Shown piece after piece: positions 9,068 to 62,373 of a stretch of 64,000 nt of DNA. The translations under genes were made by a program, and so were the position numbers. Position 1 is the first letter of the stretch. The number at the start of each line of letters is the position of its first letter. The notes beneath the pieces were generated by a model. It made no database searches. It was given only the letters and a program-made list of their open reading frames with translations, and was not told the origin of the DNA. The DNA is from Promethearchaeota archaeon (GTDB taxonomy: Archaea > Asgardarchaeota > Lokiarchaeia > Sigyniarchaeales > SOKP01). Location: assembly GCA_048938025.1 (NCBI GenBank), contig JBHLMP010000006.1, positions 1-64,000 of the forward strand, written 5' to 3'.

Positions 9068-9550
9068 TTGGTAATAGAACTTATGTCGTCTTTAAATAGA
9101 GAAAAATTGCATACAACCTGTAGAGAATCCTTAGAGAAAGATAAAGATTTCATTCCTCGGAAATATACACTTACTCATTCAGATTCCACAGGAGAATTAT
9201 ATTTAACCATCGATTGTGATTATGATTACAACCAGATATCAGGCTTGTATACTCGTTTTATGAGGGATGAAATTTTAGCGGAATGGCAAAGAAATGAAGA
9301 AAAAGATGAATTGCATGTATTTGCCCATGTTAGTGGCGGAATTGTTTTTGGATGGGCAGCACTACGATATAGAATTTTTAAGCATCATATGCCAATGGTC
9401 CTACAAACTATTAGAGAGGGAGATACTCAACTGTTTGAGATTTTTCCAATTCTTGACAATGTTCCTATATTTGTGCATTTTTTATCACAAAATAAAAAAT
9501 ATAATAAAATTGAAAATTATGGAACTTTAAAAGATTATAAGTTGGATTAA
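9068..9550 (+). CDS. Stay-Green (SGR) family protein, putative metal dechelatase
   Basis: PRKYTLTHSD.TGELYLTI, RDEILAEW, LHVFAHVSGG, RYRIF...MP.VL, GD..LF, VHF.S....NKIENYGTL match the SGR domain; likely start ATG 9083. Confidence 0.88.
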   Translation: MVIELMSSLNREKLHTTCRESLEKDKDFIPRKYTLTHSDSTGELYLTIDCDYDYNQISGLYTRFMRDEILAEWQRNEEKDELHVFAHVSGGIVFGWAALRYRIFKHHMPMVLQTIREGDTQLFEIFPILDNVPIFVHFLSQNKKYNKIENYGTLKDYKLD

Positions 9551-9754: not shown

Positions 9755-10501
9755 ATGACAGTCATCACTTATAAAGTAGTTTTCGATGGTCGGATCGATG
9801 ATAAATTAAAAAATAAGATTGACAACGGATTTTTAGAGGAAGTAATTGATGATGCCCAAACTCAGGTAGTTATAGGAGTAGATTTTTATGCTAAAGATTT
9901 TAATCTATATGGGAAAGGGATAAGAGCTCAAGTTTGGATCTTAAGTCAAGATCAAATGTTTAAGGCAATAAAAGCTATGTATTACAAGGGTGCGAATCTC
10001 GTCATATATGTGAAATCTGATAATTCATCTACTGTTGAAAAATTAATAGATTCTTTTAAAAATGCTAAGATTAATCCAAATAATATAATTTTAATAGAGA
10101 CTACAGAAGATTTTACTGAAGCTTTTTTTGAATATGCAATTGTAATTACTTTGTATCATGATGGATTAATAAGTTCTAGTACATTCAGAGAGAAAAAAGT
10201 AGTTTATGAGAAAGGGAATGACCCAAAATTTACAGTTTTAAGTGATTATTTAGAATCAGAGGAATATGAAATTAAAAATTTGAAAGATTTATTATTAAGA
10301 AAAGAGGGGAAAATTGAAGAATTAAGAAAGCTAGTTAAATTTAAAGATAAACAAATAAGCAATTTAAAAGATTCCCTCCAATCGAAAGATAAACTCATAA
10401 GATCACAAATTAACGAAATGAAAATTATTACTAATTCTGTAAAGATTAAAGAAAAAGAACTTGAGGATCTACGAAAAGAATTAAAGCTTAAAGATAAGTA
10501 A
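9755..10501 (+). CDS. Degenerate Rab-like small-GTPase domain fused to a coiled coil
   Basis: YKVVFDG, IGVDFYAK, IRAQVW, F...KAMYYKGA retained; P-loop GKT, DxxGQ and NKxD absent; heptad-rich C-terminus. Confidence 0.65.
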   Translation: MTVITYKVVFDGRIDDKLKNKIDNGFLEEVIDDAQTQVVIGVDFYAKDFNLYGKGIRAQVWILSQDQMFKAIKAMYYKGANLVIYVKSDNSSTVEKLIDSFKNAKINPNNIILIETTEDFTEAFFEYAIVITLYHDGLISSSTFREKKVVYEKGNDPKFTVLSDYLESEEYEIKNLKDLLLRKEGKIEELRKLVKFKDKQISNLKDSLQSKDKLIRSQINEMKIITNSVKIKEKELEDLRKELKLKDK

Positions 10502-10726: not shown

Positions 10727-11134
10727 ATGGAATTAAATGGTTATATAGAGGATCCAAGGGTTAATGATGAGGATCTTGGGAAAAATTTAGAAGCGTTATT
10801 GCATATGTTTTTAATTAAAAATCCGAATGTTAATGCAGCAGTAGTAATCACCACTGAGGGCCTCCCAATTATTTCTGCTATTTCTCATCGTTTAGATGAA
10901 ACAAGAATCGCGGCCATGTCAGCTACACTACTTTCTTTGGCAGAAAGGGCTATAAAAGAAATGGAGAGAGGAGCTTTCAATGAACTTTTTATTAAGGGAA
11001 CAGAAGGATACTTAATACTGGTACAAGCAGGACCTCATGCTGTTGTAATGCTTTCTACAAACATAGATGTTCAACTAGGATTATTATTTTTTGAGTGTGA
11101 AAGAATATGCGAAAAGATTGCATACATCCTATAA
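10727..11134 (+). CDS. Roadblock/LC7 (MglB-like) protein
   Basis: AAVVITTEGLPIIS, RIAAMSATLLSLAERA..EMERG, IKGTEGYLIL. Confidence 0.92.
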   Translation: MELNGYIEDPRVNDEDLGKNLEALLHMFLIKNPNVNAAVVITTEGLPIISAISHRLDETRIAAMSATLLSLAERAIKEMERGAFNELFIKGTEGYLILVQAGPHAVVMLSTNIDVQLGLLFFECERICEKIAYIL

Positions 11135-14369: not shown

Positions 14370-16655
14370 TTATTCAACTGGCTGAAAAATTCCCTTTTTT
14401 ATTAAAGAAAGAATTGCTTGATAATCTTTTGGAGTACACACATTTTCCGGAAGTAAGTAAATGGCATAAAAGTAATTAAATTTATGTTGTTTCATAAAAT
14501 CTAGCGCTCTTTTAATCATTTCTTTCTCATTTTGGTTTAGATCAGCTTTTTTAGGCATTATTATTTGTAATGGATAGACAAATGATGTATTCAAATTTTT
14601 TTCTACTAAATCCTTTATTCCTCGAAATGGTTGAAGATTTCCACTAAATTGGTCAATTAGTTTACCATAATTTTTGTATACATCATAAGCTAAAGACTCA
14701 ATTGAGTATAAAAAGTTCTTAGACGGATTTTCTTTCATTATTATAATTATTCTTAAATTTACAAACTCAGACATCAAAAGAATTGATCCACGATACTCTA
14801 ATTTAATTGTTCGTGAATCCTTTGTACCTTCCAATACTTCTGTTCCAAAATTATGCAAAGCTTGTAAGTATCCCGCGATTAATGTCAGATCAAATTCCTT
14901 TTTTTCAAATGACTCAGCATACAAATCAATACCGGATTTTTTATCGAGAACAATGACATATTTTAAATTCATAACATCAGTGCATTGTTCTAAAATTAAT
15001 TCTAACCTTTTTCTACCTTTTGTTTCCCTTTTTCTAAGTTTTGTATATCCTACGAATCCTATGAAAGCGGCAGCAATTATGATTATGGCAATAATAAGGT
15101 ATATTGTAAAATCGTCGGCAGAACCGGTTGAAACCGGTACAGAGATGATTGTAAAAACTTGTGTTTGAACTCCAGCATCAGTTTGATTATTCCAATATAA
15201 ATATGCTATGTAGTTGCCTTCTAAAATACCCGAAGGTATGACGTAAGAAAACACATAATCATCAGGTGGAATGGTCTTCTTTATTTCAGTTTCCATAGAA
15301 CCAAGAGGATCAATTAATCGAAATGTATAATTTCCAGGTAAAACAGGAGTACCAATCGAAAATGCTAATTCTTCACCAACTTCAAATTCAGTTGAAACCG
15401 TATTAATATTAAAGTTAATGTTTGGAGAATAAGCTTTTATTTCCCATTCTGCCCCATCTGTAATGATATTATTGGGTATTATTAATAGACTTTCTAGAGG
15501 ATTGATTGTCACATTATCGATTATATTTATCAAATCTTTATAAACTGAAAAATTCTCCCATTGTGAAGGATAGGAAAATTCTACTGAGCAATTATTTGAA
15601 TATCTTGTAATAGAAGGTCGTACTGTCCATTCATTTGTAGAATTAGCTTTGATTGTTACTGAGGCTGGAGCAGAAAATATATTGTGTGTATTTAATAGGT
15701 AGGTTACATCGAAAATTAGATTTGCTGAATTATTGCAAAAAACAGGAAGATTGATCTGTTCACTGTTTGGAGAAAAGTCTAATATTGTAAGCGGTAAACT
15801 ACCAGATCCTATAGACGACCCATTTTGAATTTCATAAAATTCATTATCAATTTCAATAGTCATATTAATAGCTTTTGGATATACAGGAATTTCTGTTTCT
15901 CGAATTAATTTATATAAAAATGGTGAATTTGATATTCCTGTAGTCCAAGTTTCGGTGTTAAGAAATTGAGAGATTAATAGATCTGGATATATTGGATCAT
16001 TGTCATTATAATACCAATGATATCTGTCATCGTCTACAGAAATTATATTTGAACCATTTAAGACCAAAAAATAATCTCCCTTTGGCAAGGTTAATTTTGA
16101 AGGAAAAGCTTGTAAATACCATCCTTCTACATCTGACATATTTATATCCATAGTTAAATATAATGTATTATTAGGGATATCATTTAAAGTATCATATCCT
16201 CTCACTTGAACTTGAATGATTTTGGGAGTAGTATGAATTTCTTTCTTTCCATAAACATATACACCTAAAAGCGTCTCTGATTCATTTAACTGAATTTGTA
16301 CTGCTAAACCTTGTTTTCTGAAATTCATATTTTGAAAATAAATTTCCTCATATACTCCATAGCTTTTGTTTTCAATAATTTCAATCTCTGAGCCTAAATC
16401 ATTTATATTTGTGAAATTTAATTCAATATCTTCAATGTTCCATGAAGAAGATGGCAATGTAATGTTAATTGAATCTTCTTTATCATAAAAACCTTGATTA
16501 ATTGAATTTTCAATCATTTCAAAATTTAAGTTAATATCGAGAGAATGATCACTACCATTCGACGAAATAACATCTAAATTCTGAAATAATACTGTAAATA
16601 AACTTAGTAAGACTAAAAATGTAAATCCTTTTTTTATTAAATTTAATTTCTTCAT
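14370..16655 (-). CDS. Single-pass membrane protein: large ectodomain + cytoplasmic longin-like domain (paralogue 1)
   Basis: N-terminal signal, many NxS/T sequons, TM IYLIIAIIIIAAAFIGFVGY, then KKSGIDLY...LIAGYLQALHNFGTE...IKLEY...LMSEF. Confidence 0.8.
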   Translation of the reverse strand: MKKLNLIKKGFTFLVLLSLFTVLFQNLDVISSNGSDHSLDINLNFEMIENSINQGFYDKEDSINITLPSSSWNIEDIELNFTNINDLGSEIEIIENKSYGVYEEIYFQNMNFRKQGLAVQIQLNESETLLGVYVYGKKEIHTTPKIIQVQVRGYDTLNDIPNNTLYLTMDINMSDVEGWYLQAFPSKLTLPKGDYFLVLNGSNIISVDDDRYHWYYNDNDPIYPDLLISQFLNTETWTTGISNSPFLYKLIRETEIPVYPKAINMTIEIDNEFYEIQNGSSIGSGSLPLTILDFSPNSEQINLPVFCNNSANLIFDVTYLLNTHNIFSAPASVTIKANSTNEWTVRPSITRYSNNCSVEFSYPSQWENFSVYKDLINIIDNVTINPLESLLIIPNNIITDGAEWEIKAYSPNINFNINTVSTEFEVGEELAFSIGTPVLPGNYTFRLIDPLGSMETEIKKTIPPDDYVFSYVIPSGILEGNYIAYLYWNNQTDAGVQTQVFTIISVPVSTGSADDFTIYLIIAIIIIAAAFIGFVGYTKLRKRETKGRKRLELILEQCTDVMNLKYVIVLDKKSGIDLYAESFEKKEFDLTLIAGYLQALHNFGTEVLEGTKDSRTIKLEYRGSILLMSEFVNLRIIIIMKENPSKNFLYSIESLAYDVYKNYGKLIDQFSGNLQPFRGIKDLVEKNLNTSFVYPLQIIMPKKADLNQNEKEMIKRALDFMKQHKFNYFYAIYLLPENVCTPKDYQAILSLIKKGIFQPVE

Positions 16656-27796: not shown

Positions 27797-28642
27797 ATGA
27801 TCATTTGGATATTAGATTCCGAATCTGGAACAAAATTATTATATAAATCATTTTTGAAAACGAGTGCCGATGAGGATATTGTTTCTGGTTTTTTAACAGC
27901 GTTTCATCATTTTTCTATGGTTGAATTTAAGCAATCATTAGAATCTATAGAAATGGGTGGATTAAGATGGAGTTATATATTAGAGCCAGAGTATCAATTA
28001 CTTTTTGTGGCAGCAGACACCAAAAGTGTAAGAACTGAAATGCTAATGGGGAGATTAAATGTTATAAGAGAAGCATTCGTAAAGGAATTTAAATCCGCAT
28101 GGGAAAAAAAAGGTCACAGTTGGGATGGAAATATTAATATTTTTTTACCTTTTATTGATGTAATTGAGGATTATTATAATCAATGGGAAGAGGTTGAAAC
28201 ATTAACCCATGTTGCAGATTTTTTTGATATCTTGGGTGTTTTTCAACACATATTAATTTCAATTAGAAATATTATGGATCATAAAATGTATAGTAAGTCC
28301 AAAAATGAAATTTTAAATCTCATTGATAAATCGTATAATACTATTAAAAATCAAGCAAAATACAAAAATCATCCAGAATTGAAAAATATCTCCTATTCTA
28401 AAGAGGCTTGGTTTAATATAATTGATATAAACCTTATTAAGGGTGAAAAAAAATTAGTTATGACGTATTTGAAATCAATTCTTAGACAAATTGTAACTAT
28501 TTTAAAGGAAGTAAAAGGAGAGAATTTATGTTTAAGATATTTTAGCGAAGAACATATTTATGCTTACATTTATAATAATATGAAATTATTAAAAGATTTA
28601 AAACTAGATTTGTTTTTTTTGGAACTTTTTCTATTATTATAA
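27797..28642 (+). CDS. Soluble protein with an N-terminal longin-like domain
   Basis: IWILDSESG..LLYK, DIVSGFLTAF..F...EF...LESIEMGG, LLFVAAD; helical C-terminal half. Confidence 0.65.
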   Translation: MIIWILDSESGTKLLYKSFLKTSADEDIVSGFLTAFHHFSMVEFKQSLESIEMGGLRWSYILEPEYQLLFVAADTKSVRTEMLMGRLNVIREAFVKEFKSAWEKKGHSWDGNINIFLPFIDVIEDYYNQWEEVETLTHVADFFDILGVFQHILISIRNIMDHKMYSKSKNEILNLIDKSYNTIKNQAKYKNHPELKNISYSKEAWFNIIDINLIKGEKKLVMTYLKSILRQIVTILKEVKGENLCLRYFSEEHIYAYIYNNMKLLKDLKLDLFFLELFLLL

Positions 28643-36306: not shown

Positions 36307-37557
36307 TTATCGCCATTCAGTACCACAATGACCGCATTTATATTTATGACCATAAACTCGTGGATATGCAAATATTATATGAGTTTTATCAATTATTTCC
36401 CGAATGAGATCTTTGTTAGCATTTCCACATTTAGGACATCTACGCCTTCCCTCAGAACTTCCCTCTAAAATTATTTGTCCTTCTTTTTCTAGTTCAGGAG
36501 AGATGATTGATTTCAATTCTTCTACCAAAGAATAAGAAGAAATAGCCTGTTCTGTTTCCTCAACATTTAGCTCTTGGGTATCTATTGTAATCTTTTCTTC
36601 CATCTTTAATGCAGGTTCCATTAATTGTTCAGTCTCAACTTTTAAAGGTTTTTGAGAGGGGACCTTAAGTTCTTCATGAGGTTGAGGAATTGCTACTTCC
36701 ACTACTTTTTTACCTTTTTCTTTAAACCTTTTATTTTCATCCTCGAGAGCGACTACTTGTTCTTGTAAAATAGCGATTTCTTTTTCTAATTGTGCAATAT
36801 CCGGTTTTTGCATCTTTAAAAAGTCAATGTTATTTCTTAATAAATTGGTTTCGTTTACCAATTCATGGATTTTTTCATTTTTATTAAGAATTAAATTTTC
36901 TAATCTATTAACTTCTTCCATCAAGTTTGCTATAGTATTACGAGTACTCTCAATGAACTCAACATCAGGTTTTTCTTTCTCTTTGAGTATCCTATTATTA
37001 TCCTCTAATTCAGCAATCATTGCTTCTAAATCTATAACTTCTTCCTCTAATTGTGCAATTGTAGCCAACTCAGTTTTTAAATCTCGGATATTATTTTTTA
37101 ACACTCTATTTTCATGTTCTAATTCAGAAGCTTGATTTTTTAATGGTTCAAGATTTTTCTCTAATCTATGGTACTCTTCTGTTAAATTTTCGATTTTTTT
37201 AGTATACTCTTTTAAAATCAGGGGATCCACTGTTTCACCTAAATTTTCTTTTTGTTTCGAAAATTCAAGATTTAAATTTTCAATTTTTTTTTGTAAAATT
37301 TCACTTTCATAATCTTTCTGAGCTAACTCTTTTCGCTGTGAAGAAACCATATTTTTTAAAATTGTAATTTCTTCTGATTCATTTAAACTATCGGCGGTAA
37401 CTTTGCCACTTAATAAGGTTCGTGAATTCTGTTCTTCTAATTGAGCATTTAACCTATTAATCTCATTATTCAATTTTTCTATAATCTTTTCCAATTCTGC
37501 TCTGTTCCTTTCTTCTTCTTCAGCTTTATCAATTAAATCCTTTAAATTTTCGCTCAT
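36307..37557 (-). CDS. Long coiled-coil protein with C-terminal Zn ribbon
   Basis: About 280 aa of heptads; CPKCG...CGHCG.EWR. Confidence 0.8.
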   Translation of the reverse strand: MSENLKDLIDKAEEEERNRAELEKIIEKLNNEINRLNAQLEEQNSRTLLSGKVTADSLNESEEITILKNMVSSQRKELAQKDYESEILQKKIENLNLEFSKQKENLGETVDPLILKEYTKKIENLTEEYHRLEKNLEPLKNQASELEHENRVLKNNIRDLKTELATIAQLEEEVIDLEAMIAELEDNNRILKEKEKPDVEFIESTRNTIANLMEEVNRLENLILNKNEKIHELVNETNLLRNNIDFLKMQKPDIAQLEKEIAILQEQVVALEDENKRFKEKGKKVVEVAIPQPHEELKVPSQKPLKVETEQLMEPALKMEEKITIDTQELNVEETEQAISSYSLVEELKSIISPELEKEGQIILEGSSEGRRRCPKCGNANKDLIREIIDKTHIIFAYPRVYGHKYKCGHCGTEWR

Positions 37558-37832: not shown

Positions 37833-38420
37833 ATGGAAGATGTAAGTGATGAAATTTTCTGGAAAAATATAATTAAACAGTATTGGAAAATATTCGTCAT
37901 TTGTATAATCGCAGTAATCGTATGTGCTATAGGAGTACTTCTAGTCCTTGTTTGGTTTATAGAAACCTCTACTCTTGGGGGGCAAGGTGAATGGACTTTT
38001 AATCAGTGGACATTAAATTATGTTGTTGGCTTTATGATTTTGATAATTCTTTGGGAGTTATTACTTGTAGGAGTTCCAGCAGCCCTATTTTTTGGTGTAG
38101 GGGGATATCTATGGTGGAAGAAATTACCTGATGAAGAAAAACAAGTATTCAAAGGAAGAGAAAAGAGGGAAAAGAAAAAATACAAACATTCAAAAAACTG
38201 GGGTGGCGGTGGAGGATTTAATATATTTATGTTTATAGCCTACTGTATCGTTATCGCGATTGATGGAAACTATAATACTAGATTTGGACAATTAGATTAC
38301 AGCTATTTCATTTATGCTTGGTTTTTTACTATTATGTGGCTTTTGATAATTTTTGGCATTCCTGTGGTTATTATACTTTTGATTGTTTATTTTAAAGTAT
38401 GGAGAAAAAAATTAGAGTAA
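37833..38420 (+). CDS. Hypothetical membrane protein (about 4 TM)
   Basis: Hydrophobic helices, basic loop and GGGGG linker. Confidence 0.75.
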   Translation: MEDVSDEIFWKNIIKQYWKIFVICIIAVIVCAIGVLLVLVWFIETSTLGGQGEWTFNQWTLNYVVGFMILIILWELLLVGVPAALFFGVGGYLWWKKLPDEEKQVFKGREKREKKKYKHSKNWGGGGGFNIFMFIAYCIVIAIDGNYNTRFGQLDYSYFIYAWFFTIMWLLIIFGIPVVIILLIVYFKVWRKKLE

Positions 38421-38483: not shown

Positions 38484-40760
38484 TTATTCTTTAGGTTGAA
38501 AGACTTTTTTCTTTATCAAATTAAGGATTGTTTCAGCCTCTTTTGCATCAAAACCCTTTCTTATTGATAATAGACTAGTAACAGTAAAATAATCCTTGTT
38601 TTGCTTTTTCATAATCACTTTAGCTCGACTTGCCATGGATTTTTCATCCGACTTAAGTTTAATATCTCGTTTAATTATTTCTAATGGATATATTAAAGCT
38701 GTTTGTAAATGTTGTTCAAGTAATTCACCGATTCCTTTAAGTGGTGTTATATTTCCATTAAAGCTTTCAATTATATTACCATATCTTTTATTAATATCAT
38801 AAGATAAAGCTCTAATTGATTCTAAAAAGTCATGTGAAGGATTTTCTTTCATAATAAGCAAAATTCTAAAAGTCTTAAATTCTGACATTAAGATTTTTGA
38901 ATCGTGATATTCCAATTTTATTGTCTGAGATTGTTCACTAGCTCCAGTTAATTCAATACCAAAGCTACGAATTGCTTCAAGAAATCCAGCAATTAATGAA
39001 GCATCAATAGATTTACCAGCATAAATCTGCTCGTATATATTTAACCCAGATTTCTTATGTGTAATAATCAAATAATCTAAATTTAAAACATCCATATATT
39101 TATTAAAAATACTCTGTCTGTATACCTCATGTTTTCTCTTAGAGATTTTAACAAGTTTATATGTGGTAAAACTAGCAATAGATAAAATTGCTACAGCAGA
39201 TACTATTATAACAATTAGCATCGGATCTAAGACAAAAGGAATACTTACTTTAAATTCTTGAGTAATAACACCTGCATCCGTAGCATTATTCCAGAAAATG
39301 TAAGCCTTATAAATCCCTTCATTAGGACTAGATGGAAGTTGATAACTCAGTATGAGATCTTCTGTTCCGATTGAATCTATTATATAAACTTCATCTGGCT
39401 GAGCGGGATAACCTAATGAATTAATTAACCTAAAAGTAATATTTCCTGGAGGAATTGGAGACAGAACAGAAAATTGTATTTCTTGACCTGCTCCAAACTT
39501 TGTTTTTTGTACATTTAAAGGAAGTTGTATATTTGGAGAATTTGCTGTTATTCTCCAGTCCGATCCCTCTATTATTGTATTATTCTGAAGAAATATAAAG
39601 TGATTTATTGGATCTTTTATAACATCTATGGTAATATTTTCCCATCCAAAACCTATATCTCTATATATAGTTAAATTATACCAATTGTTTGGATATATAA
39701 ATTTAATAGAATAGTTACTATAACATCTATCAAACTGTTGAGTCATTATCCAAGTATTTTTCAAATTCTCTTTAATTAATAATTCCCACTCCGTATCAAG
39801 AATATTTTGAAGTTTTATATGATAACTTAAATTGAATAATAACTCAGAGACTCGATTATTTACTATTGGTATATTATATATTTCAGATAAAGGAGAAATA
39901 TCTTTACTGATATTTAATTGACCTGTTTCAGGTTCTGTTCCATTTAAGATGGGATAATAAATACCATCAATAATTGCACTCATATTAATTTCCTCTGGAT
40001 CAAAAGATTTATCTACTCTTTGAATTAATTTATATAATAAAGGTTCTCCCTTAGCTTCCCAGTTCCATTTTGCTCCGTCATGTTTTGCTGTATTCAAATT
40101 AGCATTAATAGATCCACTATCATTGTAATACCAATTATATGCTGTTCTATCACCAGGAATATTCATTTCAGTTCCATTCATTACCAAATAATATTGACCA
40201 CTTGAAAGTGATATTGGATTTTCGAAAGTTTGGATATACCAATCAAAATTATTAGTCATATTTATTGGTACCGTTCCATAAATATTATCATCTGGTATGT
40301 TTTCTGCACCATTATATCCTTGTATTTGTATATATGCTGGAATTGATGGATCTTCACCACTACGAACTCCATATATATATACTCCAAAAATATCTGTAGG
40401 TACGGTAATATTAATTTGCACACCATATCCATATTCACCCTTAAAACCGACTGTTTTGGTTTCATCTCCCTCTTCTTCAATTGTTATAATTTCTTTTCCT
40501 AACTTTATATCAGTAAAATTAAGCTCCATATTTGTAATGTTCCAAGTTGCTGATGGTAAAGGAATATTTATTGAACTTATGTCTATACTTATATTTATAT
40601 TATCTGAATATTCAATCATAGGGACGTTTGAATTTATCTCAAGTGATTCATCATTATTTTGAGCATTAACAAAATTGGTGATATAAATTAAACTTACTAA
40701 GAAAAGAGTTATGATTGTGAATCCTATTATATAAGATCTTGATTTATATACCTCTTTCAA
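38484..40760 (-). CDS. Single-pass membrane protein: large ectodomain + cytoplasmic longin-like domain (paralogue 2)
   Basis: FWNNATDAGV, TM, KKSGLNIYEQ...LIAGFLEAIRSFGIE...TIKLEY..SKILMSEF, ends LIKKKVFQP. Confidence 0.8.
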   Translation of the reverse strand: MKEVYKSRSYIIGFTIITLFLVSLIYITNFVNAQNNDESLEINSNVPMIEYSDNINISIDISSINIPLPSATWNITNMELNFTDIKLGKEIITIEEEGDETKTVGFKGEYGYGVQINITVPTDIFGVYIYGVRSGEDPSIPAYIQIQGYNGAENIPDDNIYGTVPINMTNNFDWYIQTFENPISLSSGQYYLVMNGTEMNIPGDRTAYNWYYNDSGSINANLNTAKHDGAKWNWEAKGEPLLYKLIQRVDKSFDPEEINMSAIIDGIYYPILNGTEPETGQLNISKDISPLSEIYNIPIVNNRVSELLFNLSYHIKLQNILDTEWELLIKENLKNTWIMTQQFDRCYSNYSIKFIYPNNWYNLTIYRDIGFGWENITIDVIKDPINHFIFLQNNTIIEGSDWRITANSPNIQLPLNVQKTKFGAGQEIQFSVLSPIPPGNITFRLINSLGYPAQPDEVYIIDSIGTEDLILSYQLPSSPNEGIYKAYIFWNNATDAGVITQEFKVSIPFVLDPMLIVIIVSAVAILSIASFTTYKLVKISKRKHEVYRQSIFNKYMDVLNLDYLIITHKKSGLNIYEQIYAGKSIDASLIAGFLEAIRSFGIELTGASEQSQTIKLEYHDSKILMSEFKTFRILLIMKENPSHDFLESIRALSYDINKRYGNIIESFNGNITPLKGIGELLEQHLQTALIYPLEIIKRDIKLKSDEKSMASRAKVIMKKQNKDYFTVTSLLSIRKGFDAKEAETILNLIKKKVFQPKE

Positions 40761-40907
40761 ATATAAACCCCCGAAATATTAAAATCAAACTAAAATGCTT
40801 AAGAATATAGTCTCAATTAGTCTATTTAAATTTTGATTTTATTGCTTATAGGATTCATAAATAATAATTAATAAGTATTCAAAATTAAAGATTTGAAGAA
40901 TTTAAGA

Positions 40908-43220
40908 TTAAACAGCAACTTGAAAAATATTTTTCTCTATTAATTTAAGAATTATTTCAATATCTTTAGGGCTGCAAGTTGTTTCAGATATTAAATCTTT
41001 AATATGAAAAAAATCTGTACCCTTTTTTTTCATAATTGATATTGCATCATCAATAAAATATTTCTCATTAGGGCTAATTCGAATTTTCTCTAATTTATCT
41101 CCATTAACAAATTTTAGAGGATATACAATTGATACATTAAGATGTTTTACAAGTAAATCTTCTATAGTTTTAAATTTTCTAACATCTCCATCAAATTGAT
41201 CAATTAAATTCCCATAATTCTTATAGATATCATAAGCTAAATCTTCAAGTGAATAGAGTAAAAATTCTGATGGACTTTCTTTTAATATGAGAATTAATCT
41301 AATATTTACAAATTCGCTCATTAATACAATTGAATTTCTATATTCTAATTTTATGGTCTGAGATTGATTTTCAACTTTCATTAATTCAATTCCAAATGAA
41401 GAAAGGGCTTGTAAAAACCCGGAAATTAAAGTACCATTTAAATCTTTACTTGTAAAACTTTGTTCATAAACACTTAATCCAGATCTCTTATTTGTCACAA
41501 TAAGATAATCAAGGTTCATAATATCCATACATTTACTGAATTTTTTATGCTCTTCCTCAATCTTACTAGCTCGAATCTTTTTAATTGTTCGATAAGATAT
41601 TAATCCCCCAACAATCCCTACTATTCCTAGTATAACACCAGTAACAATCCATATTGGATCTATAGTAAAGGGGATCGGAGGTTTAGCTACTTGAAAGTCT
41701 TGAGACTGAACACCTGCATCTGTGTTATTATTCCAATAAATTAAAATATAATATGAGCCTTCACGTGAATTTGATGGAATTGTATAAGAAAATAACTGTT
41801 CTGTAGAACTAATTTCTCTTGTTTCTATTGGTTCTTCATAACCAAAACCTAATGAATTGATAAAAAAGAATGTTAGATTACCTTCGGGTGCTGGTGCAGA
41901 AACAGTAAATTGTAATTCTTGTCCTGGTTCCCAATCCAAGACAGGAAGGTTTAAGTCAAAAATTATATCTGGCGAATTTGCAGTGATTCTCCATTCAGCA
42001 CCACCAAGTATAATACTATTAGGAATGAGAATTGTATTTGTATTATTATCTATAATGGTACTAGATGTAAGGTTATCCCATGATAATCCTAATTTTCGAG
42101 ATATTGTAAAGTTATACCAACTATCTGGATAATTAAACTTTACATAATAGTTAGAACCTACACTATTTAAAAGCGGAAATAGTGACCAACGATTATTAGA
42201 TTCTTCAACAATTGCAGAGGCTTTAGTTGAAAAGTTATTGTTTAGAGTAATTGAAAAATTATAATCATAATTTAATATCAGAGACTGATTAATCATGATG
42301 GGAATATTTAAATCAATCTCCTCAGAAAAGTGAGTTAAATCGGATAAATTTAAGAACCCATCCCCTATAGTTAATCCATCAGTTATTTCATAATTATCTC
42401 CATTAAATTGAGCAGTCATATTTAATTCTGAAGGAAAATATAGTTGATTTGGATCAGAAATTTTCAATTTGCATAAGAAACTTGAATTTACTGTACCAAT
42501 AGCCCAAGAAGTTATATAAGAGGAAGAATGCAAGAAAGGAATCTCAGGATCTAAATCATCTTTCTGCCAAAAATACTTTGCTTGATCATCTATAGGTAAC
42601 CCAGTTCCGTTCATTACTAATGAATAATTTCCAATCGGTAATGTAATAGGATTTGTAATAAAATCTTGATAATACCAATCTAAATCAGTAGATATATTTA
42701 AATTGATAGATCTATAAATTATACCATTAGGTATGGAATTAATTTCGTTAAATCCTTGAAGTTGGAATTTAATTGTCTCGTTTGCCTGTGGGGTTTTATA
42801 TGCTTTGATGTACACACCTAGTAAATCGGTTTCCTCCAAAATTTCAATTTGAGTCGCTAGAGCAAAGGTTCGAAAATTAACATTTTTATTCCATACTTGC
42901 CCCAATGCAGTTTCACTTTCTTCAATAACTCTAACATCACTTCCTAAACTTATGTCAGAAAAATTAATTTGTATATTTGAAATTGTCCAATTTGGTTCTG
43001 GTAAATCGATTTGAATTGAACTAACATTCTCTTTCAATCCTTCAATTTGACAATATTCATAAAATCCAAATTTAGATGAAATTGTAAAAGGTTCACCATT
43101 AGTTTGAGCATTTGAAAATCCTATGAAATTATTTAAAAATAAAAGAAAAAAGAATAGAACTAATATGATTCCTAAAACAGTTTTCGATTTAGATATACTT
43201 AGTCCCATAAAATTGATCAA
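40908..43220 (-). CDS. Single-pass membrane protein: large ectodomain + cytoplasmic longin-like domain (paralogue 3)
   Basis: YWNNNTDAGVQ, TM, KRSGLSVYEQ...LISGFLQALSSFGIE...TIKLEY..SIVLMSEF, ends LIEKNIFQ. Confidence 0.8.
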   Translation of the reverse strand: MINFMGLSISKSKTVLGIILVLFFFLLFLNNFIGFSNAQTNGEPFTISSKFGFYEYCQIEGLKENVSSIQIDLPEPNWTISNIQINFSDISLGSDVRVIEESETALGQVWNKNVNFRTFALATQIEILEETDLLGVYIKAYKTPQANETIKFQLQGFNEINSIPNGIIYRSINLNISTDLDWYYQDFITNPITLPIGNYSLVMNGTGLPIDDQAKYFWQKDDLDPEIPFLHSSSYITSWAIGTVNSSFLCKLKISDPNQLYFPSELNMTAQFNGDNYEITDGLTIGDGFLNLSDLTHFSEEIDLNIPIMINQSLILNYDYNFSITLNNNFSTKASAIVEESNNRWSLFPLLNSVGSNYYVKFNYPDSWYNFTISRKLGLSWDNLTSSTIIDNNTNTILIPNSIILGGAEWRITANSPDIIFDLNLPVLDWEPGQELQFTVSAPAPEGNLTFFFINSLGFGYEEPIETREISSTEQLFSYTIPSNSREGSYYILIYWNNNTDAGVQSQDFQVAKPPIPFTIDPIWIVTGVILGIVGIVGGLISYRTIKKIRASKIEEEHKKFSKCMDIMNLDYLIVTNKRSGLSVYEQSFTSKDLNGTLISGFLQALSSFGIELMKVENQSQTIKLEYRNSIVLMSEFVNIRLILILKESPSEFLLYSLEDLAYDIYKNYGNLIDQFDGDVRKFKTIEDLLVKHLNVSIVYPLKFVNGDKLEKIRISPNEKYFIDDAISIMKKKGTDFFHIKDLISETTCSPKDIEIILKLIEKNIFQVAV

Positions 43221-43655: not shown

Positions 43656-44831
43656 TCAACAGTCTTTCAGAGGAGTCATAAATCCACCAGCAGTTCTTTC
43701 TGTTAATGGACTCATTGAATTGCATTCCTTAATTTGAACATTTGTATCTAAATAAAATGTGCCAATCTTCTGAGCTTTATCATACAACTCGTTTTTTAAA
43801 TTATCTTCGATTGAATTAAATAAATAAAACTTAAAAAGTGGTTCAGAATTTTCTTCAACATCCCAAATTCCGTTTATTTTTCCATTTATCAAAATAGTAG
43901 CTGCAGCATTACCGGACCGATCAAAAACTCTGTCATAATTACTATAGTTAATATATCTTCCCCGTTCTTTATATCCCATAAGATAAGGATCGAGTTCAGG
44001 CAAAAAATTTAAGACTTTTTCCTTAGAATTATCAACATCTTTTAATTGATTCATATCAGACTTAAAGATAATAAAATCACCCTCAATATTCAAGACTTTT
44101 ATTCTCTCTAACTGTTCTTCGATAATTTTTAATGCTCCTCGTATCTTTGTCTTTGTTAAACCTGTCCACCAAGAAATATCACTTTCAGTTACTGGACCAT
44201 ATGATTTCACATATCTTTCGACTAGCTGCTTTATTGCATCTTTTTCATTAAATTCTGCTAAATGTATGGTTGGAAACTGTTCACTGAAGAGAATATATTT
44301 ATTTCGTCTGTCTTTCCAATCTTTAATGGGTCTACCTCTAATTAATAAGCCATGATTACACATCAATTGAATAATTGCCGGTATATTTGATTCTGAATTC
44401 AAATCTTTCCGTATTTCAGATGCAGATAACTCTTTTCCTTTTAAAATTTTAATAATAGAATTTGATATCTCTTGGTAATCTTTTAAAGAAATTTTATGAT
44501 ACTCCATATATTTTTGGAAAGTTTTTTCAGAAAGTTTAAATGTTGCAGCATGTACAATAGGAATCATGTTTTTTGTTTGAATAAACAAAGTTCTGCGCAT
44601 ACCGCGAATTCTACCCATAGTTTTGTTTATGTAGAGTTCTTTTTCTAAATCAGCTTTTTTGAAATTTCGTGTTCTTATAAAAAGTGCCAAATAAGATGTT
44701 TTAAGGTCGGTAGAATGAAGGCCGCATAGATCTTCAGTTATTTGAATAATATCGTTAGTCTTATTATCTTCAGTTAAATGTTGTTTTTTTAAAACTAATT
44801 TATTTACTTGGATTAAATCGAAAGTATTCAT
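43656..44831 (-). CDS. AlkZ/YcaQ-family (winged-helix) DNA glycosylase-like protein
   Basis: KQHL, GLHST, GMRRTLF, YVKSYGPVT..DI.WWTG, FLPELDPYLMGYKER, GKINGIW. Confidence 0.85.
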   Translation of the reverse strand: MNTFDLIQVNKLVLKKQHLTEDNKTNDIIQITEDLCGLHSTDLKTSYLALFIRTRNFKKADLEKELYINKTMGRIRGMRRTLFIQTKNMIPIVHAATFKLSEKTFQKYMEYHKISLKDYQEISNSIIKILKGKELSASEIRKDLNSESNIPAIIQLMCNHGLLIRGRPIKDWKDRRNKYILFSEQFPTIHLAEFNEKDAIKQLVERYVKSYGPVTESDISWWTGLTKTKIRGALKIIEEQLERIKVLNIEGDFIIFKSDMNQLKDVDNSKEKVLNFLPELDPYLMGYKERGRYINYSNYDRVFDRSGNAAATILINGKINGIWDVEENSEPLFKFYLFNSIEDNLKNELYDKAQKIGTFYLDTNVQIKECNSMSPLTERTAGGFMTPLKDC

Positions 44832-61224: not shown

Positions 61225-62373
61225 TTAAAACTCTTTATAATAAGAGATTAATGTATTTTTTATTTTTTCAAAATGTCCTAAATGCACCTTTAAGAGATCA
61301 TCTAATGTTTCTCGGAGTCCTGCCTCTTGTACTTTCTTTAAGATTTTAAAATATGGTGATTCTTTGAGATTTTTTTCTAAAGGTTGATTTATTTCTGTAC
61401 CTTTTAAGAGAAATTCGAGAGAGTCAACTTCTTTTACATTTATATTTTTTTGAATAATTTCTAACAACATTGTGTCAAAAGTAATCCTTAAAATAACTTC
61501 GTGATCAAAATCACCTGTTTTAGGCAATAGAACCTCCTTAAGAAGTGATATTGACTTTTGAAAGAGAGTAATTGAATCTTGTCCTAATTCTTTTATCTTT
61601 TGTCCAAAAGACCGATTCTTAGTAAGAGTGAGACATAAAGTAGCTAGTGTTTGATATTCGGCTACAAAATGAATAAAGCGTGCTTTTGTGTTGAGAATTG
61701 TGTCTTTTGATTCTTCTTCACCTAAAAGTTCACCTAAATTATCAATAGATTTTCTGAAATATGTTGCTATTTCTAAGAATTTATTTGCTGAAGCTTCATA
61801 ATCTTTGGCAGATAATAGAAGAAGTGCATTTTTTTCTTCTTGTTCATATAATTCATCAAATTTGTTAATTCTCATAACAGCTTTTAAAATCAATCGTTTT
61901 CCTAAATCTTTTTTAATACGAGAACGCTCATAAGCTTGTCCTGCTTTCAGAAGAAGAAGAGAAGAAGGGCTATGAAAGTCTTCTGGATCAGCTTTGATCA
62001 AATACTCAGAAGCTTTTTCCCAGCTTTCTCCAGCGGATTCCCAATCATTCATTTTATAAGAGAGATTTGCTAATCGCATGAGTAATTTAGCTGAGATTTC
62101 ATATAGCTTTAATTCTTCAGTCTTTCTAATTATTGATTTTAATCGATAAAGTGCTTGAATATTATTCTTAAATTGAGATATAATCTGAACAATTCTAATA
62201 AATAATTCATCTAATTTGATATAACTCCCTAAATCAATATAAATTTCAGCAGCTTTCTCATAAAGATCGATAGCTTCATCTCCTTTACCTTTATCAGCAA
62301 GATTCTCCGCTCTATCAATTAATTGAATTGCTTCTAATTCTCTATCATCGTTATATGTATTACTAAACACCAT
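61225..62373 (-). CDS. TPR-like alpha-solenoid protein (SNAP-like pattern)
   Basis: EAIDLYEKAAEIY, SAGESWEKASEYL, KAGQAYE, SANKFLEIATYF. Confidence 0.7.
   Translation of the reverse strand: MVFSNTYNDDRELEAIQLIDRAENLADKGKGDEAIDLYEKAAEIYIDLGSYIKLDELFIRIVQIISQFKNNIQALYRLKSIIRKTEELKLYEISAKLLMRLANLSYKMNDWESAGESWEKASEYLIKADPEDFHSPSSLLLLKAGQAYERSRIKKDLGKRLILKAVMRINKFDELYEQEEKNALLLLSAKDYEASANKFLEIATYFRKSIDNLGELLGEEESKDTILNTKARFIHFVAEYQTLATLCLTLTKNRSFGQKIKELGQDSITLFQKSISLLKEVLLPKTGDFDHEVILRITFDTMLLEIIQKNINVKEVDSLEFLLKGTEINQPLEKNLKESPYFKILKKVQEAGLRETLDDLLKVHLGHFEKIKNTLISYYKEF

Follow-up and report, generated by a model that had tools for sequence, protein, structure and literature searches.

The DNA analysed here (the window) is a stretch of 64,000 nucleotides, positions 1 to 64,000 of contig JBHLMP010000006.1 of a Promethearchaeota archaeon (GCA_048938025.1), with a G+C content of 29.6%. 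It carries three paralogous genes on the minus strand, which appear to encode surface proteins with a large glycosylated ectodomain, a single transmembrane (TM) helix and a cytoplasmic tail of longin fold. Gene A (38484..40760, an open reading frame (ORF) of 758 aa) and gene B (40908..43220, 770 aa) are tandem copies of the same architecture on the same strand, separated by 147 bp, and gene C (14370..16655, 761 aa) is a third paralog belonging to an older clade. Along its full length A shares 40% identity with B and 39% with C. Both A and B begin with TTG, thus their start positions are uncertain by a few codons. An earlier description of this DNA, made from the letters alone (the sequence-only reading), had taken the three proteins, of about 760 aa each, for a receptor-like family coupling an extracellular domain to a longin-like domain, and the three reading frames lie on the minus strand where it had put them.

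All three proteins start with a stretch, recognized by hydropathy, that ends in ...NAQ or ...SSN, and contain exactly one more hydrophobic stretch, within residues ~502-545, after which several Lys and Arg follow one another. In A the signal-like segment covers residues ~1-34 (40659..40760, minus strand), with a cleavage site predicted from the sequence between the Ala and Gln of VNAQ. The sole internal hydrophobic stretch of A, residues ~513-533 (39162..39224, minus strand), is the putative TM helix, and its C-terminal side is rich in Lys and Arg. The signal and TM assignments were made from hydropathy, charge and sequon asymmetry. The ectodomains of A, B and C contain 17, 18 and 17 N-x-S/T sequons, compared with 6.5+-2.3, 8.4+-2.4 and 8.1+-2.5 in shuffled sequences. 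The parts following the TM helix contain 1, 3 and 1, i.e. about the chance number (1.3, 1.5 and 1.1). The same pattern was found in 59 full-length homologs: the mean number of ectodomain sequons was 17.8 vs. 7.8 after shuffling, every one of the 59 lying above its own shuffle mean, and the mean for the tails was 1.0 vs. 1.4. Twelve sequon columns are conserved in at least 60% of the rows of the 59-homolog alignment. The ectodomain of A is acidic (60 D+E, 29 K+R), and its tail is basic directly after the TM helix. Because of the hydropathy, the charge distribution and the sequon asymmetry we assign the ectodomain to the outside of the cell and the tail to its interior. The three are predicted type I membrane proteins with their N-terminal ~480 residues extracellular and the tail cytoplasmic. 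The ectodomains are probably N-glycosylated, judging from their sequon density.

Pfam and NCBIfam searches with A, B and C gave no family above cut-off, kinases and cyclases included, and the matches below threshold (Sec3_CC, E 0.015; PB1-F2; T2SS lipoprotein, E 0.008) were dismissed as noise. Several features ascribed to the proteins from the letters alone were thus upheld: a signal-like N-terminus, a single TM helix and a basic juxtamembrane region (by hydropathy, charge and the model of the tail), a beta-rich ectodomain of ~480 aa dense in sequons (an all-beta model, and sequons at about twice the chance number), a tail inside the cell, as the sequon counts of A, B, C and the 59 homologs also indicate, and the absence of a kinase or cyclase output domain.

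The tail of A (residues 535-758, numbered 1-224 below) was modelled with AlphaFold2 from 70 aligned sequences, which gave a pLDDT of 90.8 and a pTM of 0.83. The model starts with a basic juxtamembrane helix (residues 2-25, pLDDT 89-94; 39084..39155, minus strand), which ends in a conserved D23-x-x-N26. This is followed by a beta-beta-alpha-beta-beta-beta-alpha domain (27-131), helical residues 143-156 and a unit made up of a strand, three helices and a strand (159-222). In the DSSP assignment the elements between the first helix and the last unit are E27-34, E40-45, H53-70, E78-84, E87-94, E97-103, H109-131 and H143-156. Two independent structure searches, Foldseek and VIA, identified residues 26-156 (38691..39083, minus strand) as a longin-fold domain. 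Foldseek against the PDB returned 18 matches at E<=1e-3 (1.3e-4 to 1e-3), all of them adaptor sigma subunits, Rag C-terminal domains, LAMTOR proteins or the VAMP7 longin. In the VIA search ranks 1-25 were all longin domains (Z 9.0-12.3, model residues ~26-156), including synbindin (2zmv_A, Z 12.3), Sec22b (3egd_C, 11.0), sedlin (10.7), adaptor mu and sigma subunits (~10.5) and a solved Lokiarchaeota longin (8yqg_B, 10.2). The top matches aligned over ~120 residues at an rmsd of ~3. The five-stranded antiparallel topology, with a further helix at the C-terminal end where roadblock domains have an N-terminal one, and the match over the whole domain identify the modelled tail as a longin fold, and the longin-like cytoplasmic domain of the sequence-only reading is thereby supported at the level of fold.

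Two other identities of the tail do not fit. Roadblock domains ranked below the longins (VIA Z 7.0-8.8, 94-104 residues aligned), and Robl_LC7 (PF03259) matched neither A, B, C nor any of 70 relatives; the lack of a Pfam match and the weaker structural alignment speak against a roadblock/LC7 domain. Speaking against a longin SNARE are the order of the parts (ectodomain, TM helix, longin, small domain, end of the protein) and the absence of synaptobrevin or SNARE Pfam matches. The closest curated longin signal, PF13774 at E 0.0056, was obtained only with a soluble paralog. Genome scans with PF04099 and PF01217 gave no matches, and the controls were equally silent, thus these scans are uninformative.

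The tail's C-terminal part (residues 157-224; 38487..38690, minus strand) has a b-H-H-H-b layout (b159-161, H170-185, H193-196, H205-216, b220-222) and may be a winged-helix-like domain. It was barely sampled by the fold searches. Its structural neighbours in the Atlas were an HrcA winged-helix cluster and PriA, with TM scores of 0.60-0.66 over 58-67 residues, which is weak for a 68-residue stretch, and an Atlas feature search found no named family at a useful score. No Pfam helix-turn-helix (HTH) family matched the tails of A, B, C or the 70 relatives. The winged helix proposed earlier for the C-terminus is therefore consistent with the layout and with the Atlas neighbours, and finds no counterpart among the Pfam HTH families.

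No part of the family's proteins is as well conserved as the longin domain. Among the 59 homologs the mean pairwise identity of this domain is 50.5%, compared with 37.6% for the ectodomain and 39.0% for the C-terminal unit. Seven residues (D23, N26, G38, A62, R98, S108 and L214) are invariant across ten paralogs of this genome; outside the A/B/C trio the identity of these paralogs to A is only 19-25%. Of 70 relatives, 69 have D23, 60 have N26, 54 have S37, 61 have G38 and 59 have R98, with Lys at position 98 in a further five. In 67 of the 70, position 39 is occupied by L, V or I, and Pro does not figure among the five most frequent residues of that column. We see a candidate functional patch in D23-x-x-N26, the K-x-S-G of the loop that leads to strand 2, and R98, where strand 5 begins. 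The conservation of the tail above that of the ectodomain, together with this invariant polar patch, suggests a specific intracellular partner.

The tail is not restricted to proteins like A, B and C. A word-indexed search with A found 373 homologs; among the 120 matches listed none had a precomputed Pfam domain, and they were unnamed or "hypothetical protein" entries from Promethearchaeota, Lokiarchaeota and other Asgard-labelled metagenome-assembled genomes. An exhaustive phmmer search with residues 535-758 of A yielded 700 cluster representatives at E<=1e-3, 104 of them at E<=1e-30. The module typically stands at the C-terminal end of proteins of ~220-1570 aa (e.g. residues 530-752 of 753, 1069-1289 of 1291 and 1228-1445 of 1447). 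Relatives with a source name were all Asgard, and the four of ten distant representatives examined that carried an organism name were labelled Helarchaeota, Lokiarchaeota or Heimdallarchaeota. A six-frame search at E<=1e-5 detected the module in 217 of 301 sampled genomes of the phylum, and in 67 of 68 genomes of the family to which the window belongs. On this sequence evidence the tail is a reusable, conserved, Asgard-wide module placed behind many unrelated ectodomains.

In the genome of the window a hidden Markov model (HMM) of the tail found the full module in ten proteins: A, B (tail 40911-41588, E 3.6e-84), C (tail 14373-15044, E 3e-88), a 723-aa protein, four larger ones (1157-1553 aa) and two that are soluble (460 and 464 aa). 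In eight of the ten the module is closely preceded by a hydrophobic helix, and seven of these eight also have an N-terminal hydrophobic segment. The longin part alone matches one more single-pass protein and three multi-pass membrane proteins, and the tail HMM matches the longin-like N-termini of three Arf-like GTPase fusions (E 1e-9 to 1e-11). The window itself encodes a 281-aa soluble protein (27797-28642, plus strand), which matches the longin part over its first 125 residues (HMM E 7.5e-6) and has no Pfam domain above cut-off. One soluble paralog has a weak MIT-like match (E 3.5e-4), and a soluble paralog has, at its C-terminus, weak matches to TrmB, HTH_47 and IclR (E 1e-4 to 2e-3).

Some relatives have unusual domain combinations. 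Examples are P0239 (605 aa), P0243 (1021 aa) and P0261 (433 aa). In some the module stands after tandem winged helices of the DDRGK/PCI/UFL1 type, and P0243 also has an FG-GAP/BBS7-like propeller. When Pfam was run on the 70 relatives and on 20 short or odd ones, the PCI, DDRGK and UFL1-type Pfam matches were confined to one protein, P0239; there they are N-terminal to the module and are therefore uninformative about the module's own C-terminal unit. In one Heimdallarchaeota-labelled protein the module precedes a response-regulator receiver domain. Two 1180-aa surface proteins with the module lie in near-duplicate seven-gene cassettes of the window's genome (L055 on contig C63 and L057 on C13), which consist of genes for a methyltransferase, a 540-553 aa protein of no assigned family, a CxxCxxCC protein, the receptor, a 104-aa protein, an Ogg glycosylase and a 91-aa protein, the two small ones likewise unassigned. 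The genome thus contains a segmental duplication here.

Modelled with AlphaFold2, the A ectodomain is all-beta (pLDDT 94.1). In the VIA search residues ~87-250 (model residues 54-217; 40011..40502, minus strand) resembled a lectin-like jelly roll, with the lectin-like domain of Cwp84 as the best match (4ci7_A, Z 13.7, rmsd 3.2, 152 residues aligned) and further matches to PHR domains, carbohydrate-binding modules, and phage tail, baseplate and receptor-binding proteins. The membrane-proximal residues ~409-510 (model residues 376-477; 39231..39536, minus strand) matched macroglobulin (MG) domains of alpha-2-macroglobulin and complement proteins (Z 10.5-11.4, rmsd 2.1-2.6, 90-97 residues aligned, 14-20% identity). 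The sequence signal of this MG-like Ig domain is weak: a profile match to 2p9r_A at E 0.026, and Pfam MG2 in four of 70 relatives at E>=0.006. The model has the seven-strand sandwich of MG type, which shows the fold and not membership in the family. Other VIA matches of the Ig- and MG-like stalk domains were S-layer proteins (SlaB, 8qox_B, Z 9.4; Haloferax, 7ptp_A, Z 9.3). The predicted order of the ectodomain is thus a lectin-like jelly roll, a second beta sandwich, which was barely sampled, and an MG-like Ig stalk. The ectodomains of other module proteins are mostly unannotated: in 24 long or odd relatives Pfam recognized no family in 21.

The history of the A/B array was followed in 14 related loci and in a quick maximum-likelihood tree of 37 family proteins with SH-aLRT support, a more careful search being unfinished. 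In the tree a C-type clade with members from two genera stands apart from the rest, A and B included, with a support of 100. The A/B split falls inside one genus (g1), and separate tandem expansions are found in another (g4). At least two family genes are present in 11 of the 14 loci. The two closest relatives (L025, L026) have three tandem receptor genes compared with two here; A is 84-85% identical to their first copy, and B is only ~54% identical to the third. The different copy numbers and the identity gap suggest a change of copy number or recombination in the array. Arrays that grow and diverge lineage by lineage make A and B no ancient fixed pair. The sequence-only reading had suggested that binding or heterodimerisation outside the cell would assemble a GEF platform of longin dimers, which is a conjecture; since the A/B duplication is genus-specific in the quick tree, we set aside a conserved A/B heterodimer. 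A complex prediction for the tails of A and B (score 0.05, mark 0.32) weighs neither for nor against binding.

The genes adjoining A and B encode an AlkZ-like glycosylase (43656-44831), an FMN reductase, a coiled-coil and zinc-ribbon protein and a four-TM protein. The last (195 aa; 37833..38420, plus strand) is convergent with A and has no Pfam domain above cut-off. A homolog, with identity down to 35%, lies beside an A-type gene in 10 of the 14 related loci; the four-TM protein could be a partner or retained synteny. The coiled-coil protein (36307-37557, minus strand) has 416 aa, is nearly all coiled coil with a C-x-x-C ... C-x-x-C zinc-ribbon-like end, and gave weak coiled-coil noise in Pfam; some relatives keep only its short zinc-ribbon end. 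Four loci of genus g1 (L027-L030) have a gene for a gelsolin-repeat protein of ~281 aa (PF00626, E 6e-6) two genes from the array, which is not there in the window. In seven of the 14 loci (L025, L026, L031-L035) a predicted cytoplasmic sulfatase (PF00884, E 1e-46; 75-91% mutual identity) lies beside or between the receptor genes, often together with a TauE/SafE exporter, an alkyl-sulfatase-like metallo-beta-lactamase (MBL) protein and MFS transporters.

Some genes of the window looked like plausible partners of the receptors from the letters alone, and all of them are present: the soluble longin described above, a degenerate Ras-like protein of 248 aa (9755-10501, plus strand; Pfam Ras E 2.3e-5 over part of the profile), a Robl_LC7 roadblock protein (10727-11134, plus strand; E 3.6e-14) and a TPR protein that weakly matches SNAP (61225-62373). 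The roadblock gene is directly downstream of the Ras-like gene, and the pair is kept in the closest relative. We rejected operon linkage between these genes and the receptors: the nearest two are the Ras-like gene, at 3.9 kb from C, and the roadblock gene, at 3.2 kb, which four unrelated genes separate from C, and the TPR gene is 18 kb from B.

A possible connection to small GTPases emerged from the neighbourhoods of other module genes, for which 54 of 85 ORFs in eight stretches were scanned. In the genome of the window, which has 65 PF00071 matches and nine module loci (A and B merged, longin-only matches left out), a PF00071 match lies within 3 kb of four of the nine loci (background 0.102, from 2163 ORFs of at least 200 aa; binomial P 0.009) and within 6.5 kb of five (background 0.174, P 0.011). 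With these thresholds held fixed, the comparison was extended to four better-assembled genomes, three of them from other genera and one from another family. Their 54 module matches included 26 that cover most of the module, which were merged into 24 loci. Eight of these have a Ras match within 3 kb (upper-bound background 0.169, P 0.038), and at 6.5 kb the number rises to 14 (upper-bound background 0.288, P 0.0024).

The individual gene pairs are more telling than these statistics. A Ras gene lies 57 bp downstream of, and on the same strand as, the gene of a 1318-aa module protein. On contig C72 of the window's genome (~72043-82000; L054) a 1553-aa module surface protein is encoded together with ATP-grasp_5, a Ras-family GTPase (390 aa) that is extended at its N-terminus, and a P-type cation ATPase. 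This four-gene set is kept in an order-level relative (L067), where the module protein has 3031 aa, and the Ras protein is long (~360-390 aa) in both clusters. Next to the C-type orthologs of two genus g4 genomes a Ras gene lies 6 bp (convergent) and 1.1 kb away. The small-GTPase link proposed from the letters alone thus gains support from neighbourhood enrichment for the module superfamily and finds none at A and B themselves, and at C only the degenerate Ras-like gene 3.9 kb off.

Longin and roadblock platforms dock or regulate small GTPases in TRAPP, Mon1-Ccz1, Ragulator and the SRP receptor. The explanation we prefer, to which we give slightly less than even chances, is that the longin module, held at the membrane, is a docking site or regulator for a small GTPase and so couples an outside cue, probably a glycan, to GTPase-controlled processes. 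The ectodomain would bind a ligand or surface outside the cell, a glycan being the likeliest, and the single helix is predicted to cross the membrane and continue as a rigid basic helix into the longin domain, which the winged-helix-like unit follows. The longin module would dock or regulate a cytosolic Ras/Rab-like or Arf-like GTPase, so that the receptor could bring GTPase activity to the plasma membrane according to what it meets outside. The tandem, lineage-specific duplications and the faster divergence of the ectodomains suggest diversification of what is recognized.

Several observations weigh against this explanation. The longin assignment is one of fold: Pfam and NCBIfam on A, B and C, and Pfam on the 70 relatives, gave no match above cut-off to a curated longin family (PF13774, PF04099, PF01217, PF04628), and a profile search of PDB sequences with the tail found no longin, the best match being a spurious one to protein kinase A (E 0.15). 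The GP motif of GTPase-activating protein (GAP)-type longins is absent, S-G-[LVI] standing in its place. Longin domains of SNAREs and of adaptor sigma and mu subunits work without GTPases. The window has no GTPase gene (at E<=1e-5) at a distance of 6.5 kb or less from A/B or from C, and the Ras-like, roadblock, soluble longin and TPR genes are parted from the receptors by other genes. The 3-kb and 6.5-kb thresholds were picked after viewing the neighbourhoods in the window's own genome, gene ends in the four other genomes are approximate, and because the genomes are kin, shared synteny inflates the statistics and the P values are overstated. The ligand of the ectodomain is itself putative. A search of sequencing runs for 38484-43220 returned 20 rows, all DNA or guessed to be DNA, with no holder of RNA listed. 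GTPase genes are seldom found in operons with their presumed regulators, which makes partners hard to assign (according to the available part of PMC10933270).

A bolder form of the same idea is that A, B, C and the relatives sharing their module are the missing membrane anchors of Asgard small GTPases, which lack lipid anchors. The chain would run from the receptor through the longin platform to a Ras/Rab- or Arf-like GTPase, and the D-x-x-N, K-x-S-G and Arg patch would face the GTPase. CAAX motifs and prenyltransferases are tabulated as absent from Lokiarchaeum in a review, as far as its accessible text goes (PMC4917890). We regard this proposal as possible, and lean against it.

The alternative that survives best, which we still consider unlikely and slightly less probable than the anchor proposal, is that these are envelope or adhesion glycoproteins without signalling. 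They could form the irregular coat of a cell without an S-layer or mediate adhesion between cells or to particles, and the tail would anchor, sort or cluster them, e.g. via the cytoskeleton or ESCRT. The stalk domains do match the S-layer proteins SlaB and Haloferax 7ptp_A, there are many paralogs with diverging ectodomains, the MIT-like match in one soluble paralog, weak as it is, would fit, and adaptor and SNARE longins show that the fold can act without regulating GTPases. Proteomics of MK-D1, a cultured relative, detected no S-layer protein and few glycoproteins in the accessible part of the report (PMC11284389). Such a role accounts less well for a tail that is conserved above the ectodomain and has an invariant polar patch, for the enrichment of GTPase genes near module genes, and for the presence of the module in soluble proteins and in one response-regulator fusion.

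We find it improbable that the proteins are sensors or capture proteins for sulfated glycans, working with the sulfatase, MFS importer and TauE exporter cassette. This idea concerns the ligand and is compatible with the GTPase-coupled receptor that we prefer. It draws on the sulfatase, TauE, MBL and MFS genes beside or between the receptors of relatives and on the likeness of the outer domain to lectin and carbohydrate-binding folds. It is weakened by the window, which lacks the cassette and has the AlkZ-like gene in its place, and by the genome, which has only a distant partial sulfatase match; moreover, the region is syntenic across the family, so the adjacency may be inherited and not functional, and the fold matches carry no sugar specificity. 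Membrane-tethered transcription regulators, in which the C-terminal unit would bind DNA under ectodomain control as in ToxR and CadC with the polarity reversed, are the least probable: the b-H-H-H-b layout, the HrcA and PriA neighbours and the weak TrmB, HTH_47 and IclR matches of a soluble paralog point that way, but the tails of A, B and C have no Pfam HTH match, conservation in the last helix is mainly of hydrophobic residues and K-K, the structural neighbours are weak, winged helices often bind proteins and not DNA, and the GTPase-gene association points elsewhere.

One gene of the window that is unrelated to the receptors deserves mention: 9068-9550 (plus strand) encodes a Staygreen-family protein (PF12638, E 9e-47), which is unexpected in an Asgard archaeon, since the family is known above all for its part in degrading chlorophyll in plants.

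In Asgard archaea small GTPases, like longin and roadblock domains, number in the dozens. The proteins described here bear on how these GTPases reach membranes and what they respond to, and a large, phylum-wide family that joins a probably glycosylated ectodomain, via one helix, to a conserved longin module offers a concrete, clonable handle on the question. If the GTPase link is true, receptor-coupled GTPase control predates eukaryotes. If the module proteins are in addition the membrane anchors of GTPases, they would represent a prokaryotic outside-in pathway built from parts which eukaryotes later used in TRAPP, Ragulator and the SRP receptor. If there is no GTPase link, the family would still be a candidate for a main constituent of the Asgard cell surface, which is unusual and free of an S-layer.

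It is instructive to compare the module with longin proteins described previously. Among those of Asgard archaea, longin-GTPase fusions and the Lokiarchaeota Roadblock-Longin protein 8yqg come from the same phylum and belong to the same expanded superfamily, 8yqg_B being the match at Z 10.2. For Lokiarchaeum 41 longin-like domains are reported in the portions available of two papers (PMC4917890, PMC10933270), and the asCOG preprint of 2020, as far as accessible, gives 130 roadblock/longin asCOGs and mentions fusions of longins to two-component domains. The Asgard longin proteins in print, to judge from the accessible parts of these sources, are soluble or fused to a GTPase, in contrast to the receptor-like A, B and C. 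In the literature, a structural-clustering preprint of 2026 included, we found no description of a TM-anchored, single-pass, receptor-like longin protein, an earlier listing in the asCOG supplementary tables being possible, and the word "transmembrane" does not occur in the available text of PMC10933270, which deals with Asgard GTPase, roadblock and TRAPPC3 structures.

The GAP-type longins FLCN, NPRL2 and SMCR8/C9orf72, of which there are Asgard look-alikes, are matched by the tail at Z 7.2-9.3 (7o2w_A, 4zy8_C, 8adl_S). They have a GP motif just before strand 2, adjoining the arginine finger (PMC12290439, in the part available). The tail resembles them in the conserved Gly that ends the loop before strand 2, and ~60 residues later it has a conserved Arg, R98, which is a possible counterpart of the finger; it differs in having S-G-[L/V/I] without the Pro, and it lacks a DENN or NPRL2-type C-terminal domain.

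The best fold matches of the tail are the core subunits of TRAPP (synbindin/TRAPPC4, sedlin/TRAPPC2 and TRAPPC1; Z 12.3, 10.7 and 10.1) and the Sec22b and VAMP7 longins (Z 11.0 and 10.2), which align over 121-124 residues at an rmsd of 3.0-3.4 and share with it the topology beta-beta-alpha-beta-beta-beta-alpha-alpha. The identity to these TRAPP and SNARE longins is 5-9%, with no Pfam match and no SNARE motif in the tail. Longin SNAREs have a C-terminal tail anchor, whereas here the TM helix precedes the longin domain and is preceded by a large ectodomain, and unlike in TRAPP, no TRAPPC3-like partner is encoded beside A, B or C.

In their proposed logic the receptors are like Ragulator-Rag and the SRP receptor. 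In Ragulator, roadblock dimers anchored by LAMTOR1 hold the Rag GTPases on the lysosome, and in the SRP receptor the SRX longin works with the membrane-anchored SRbeta. The fold kinship extends to both: the tail matches LAMTOR and Rag C-terminal domains at Z 7.7-8.8, the roadblock matches being weaker than the longin ones, and SRX at Z 9.4-9.9. In these systems a longin or roadblock platform anchored to the membrane positions a small GTPase, as we propose for A, B and C, with the difference that here the protein is anchored by a TM helix of its own, which connects to an extracellular domain.

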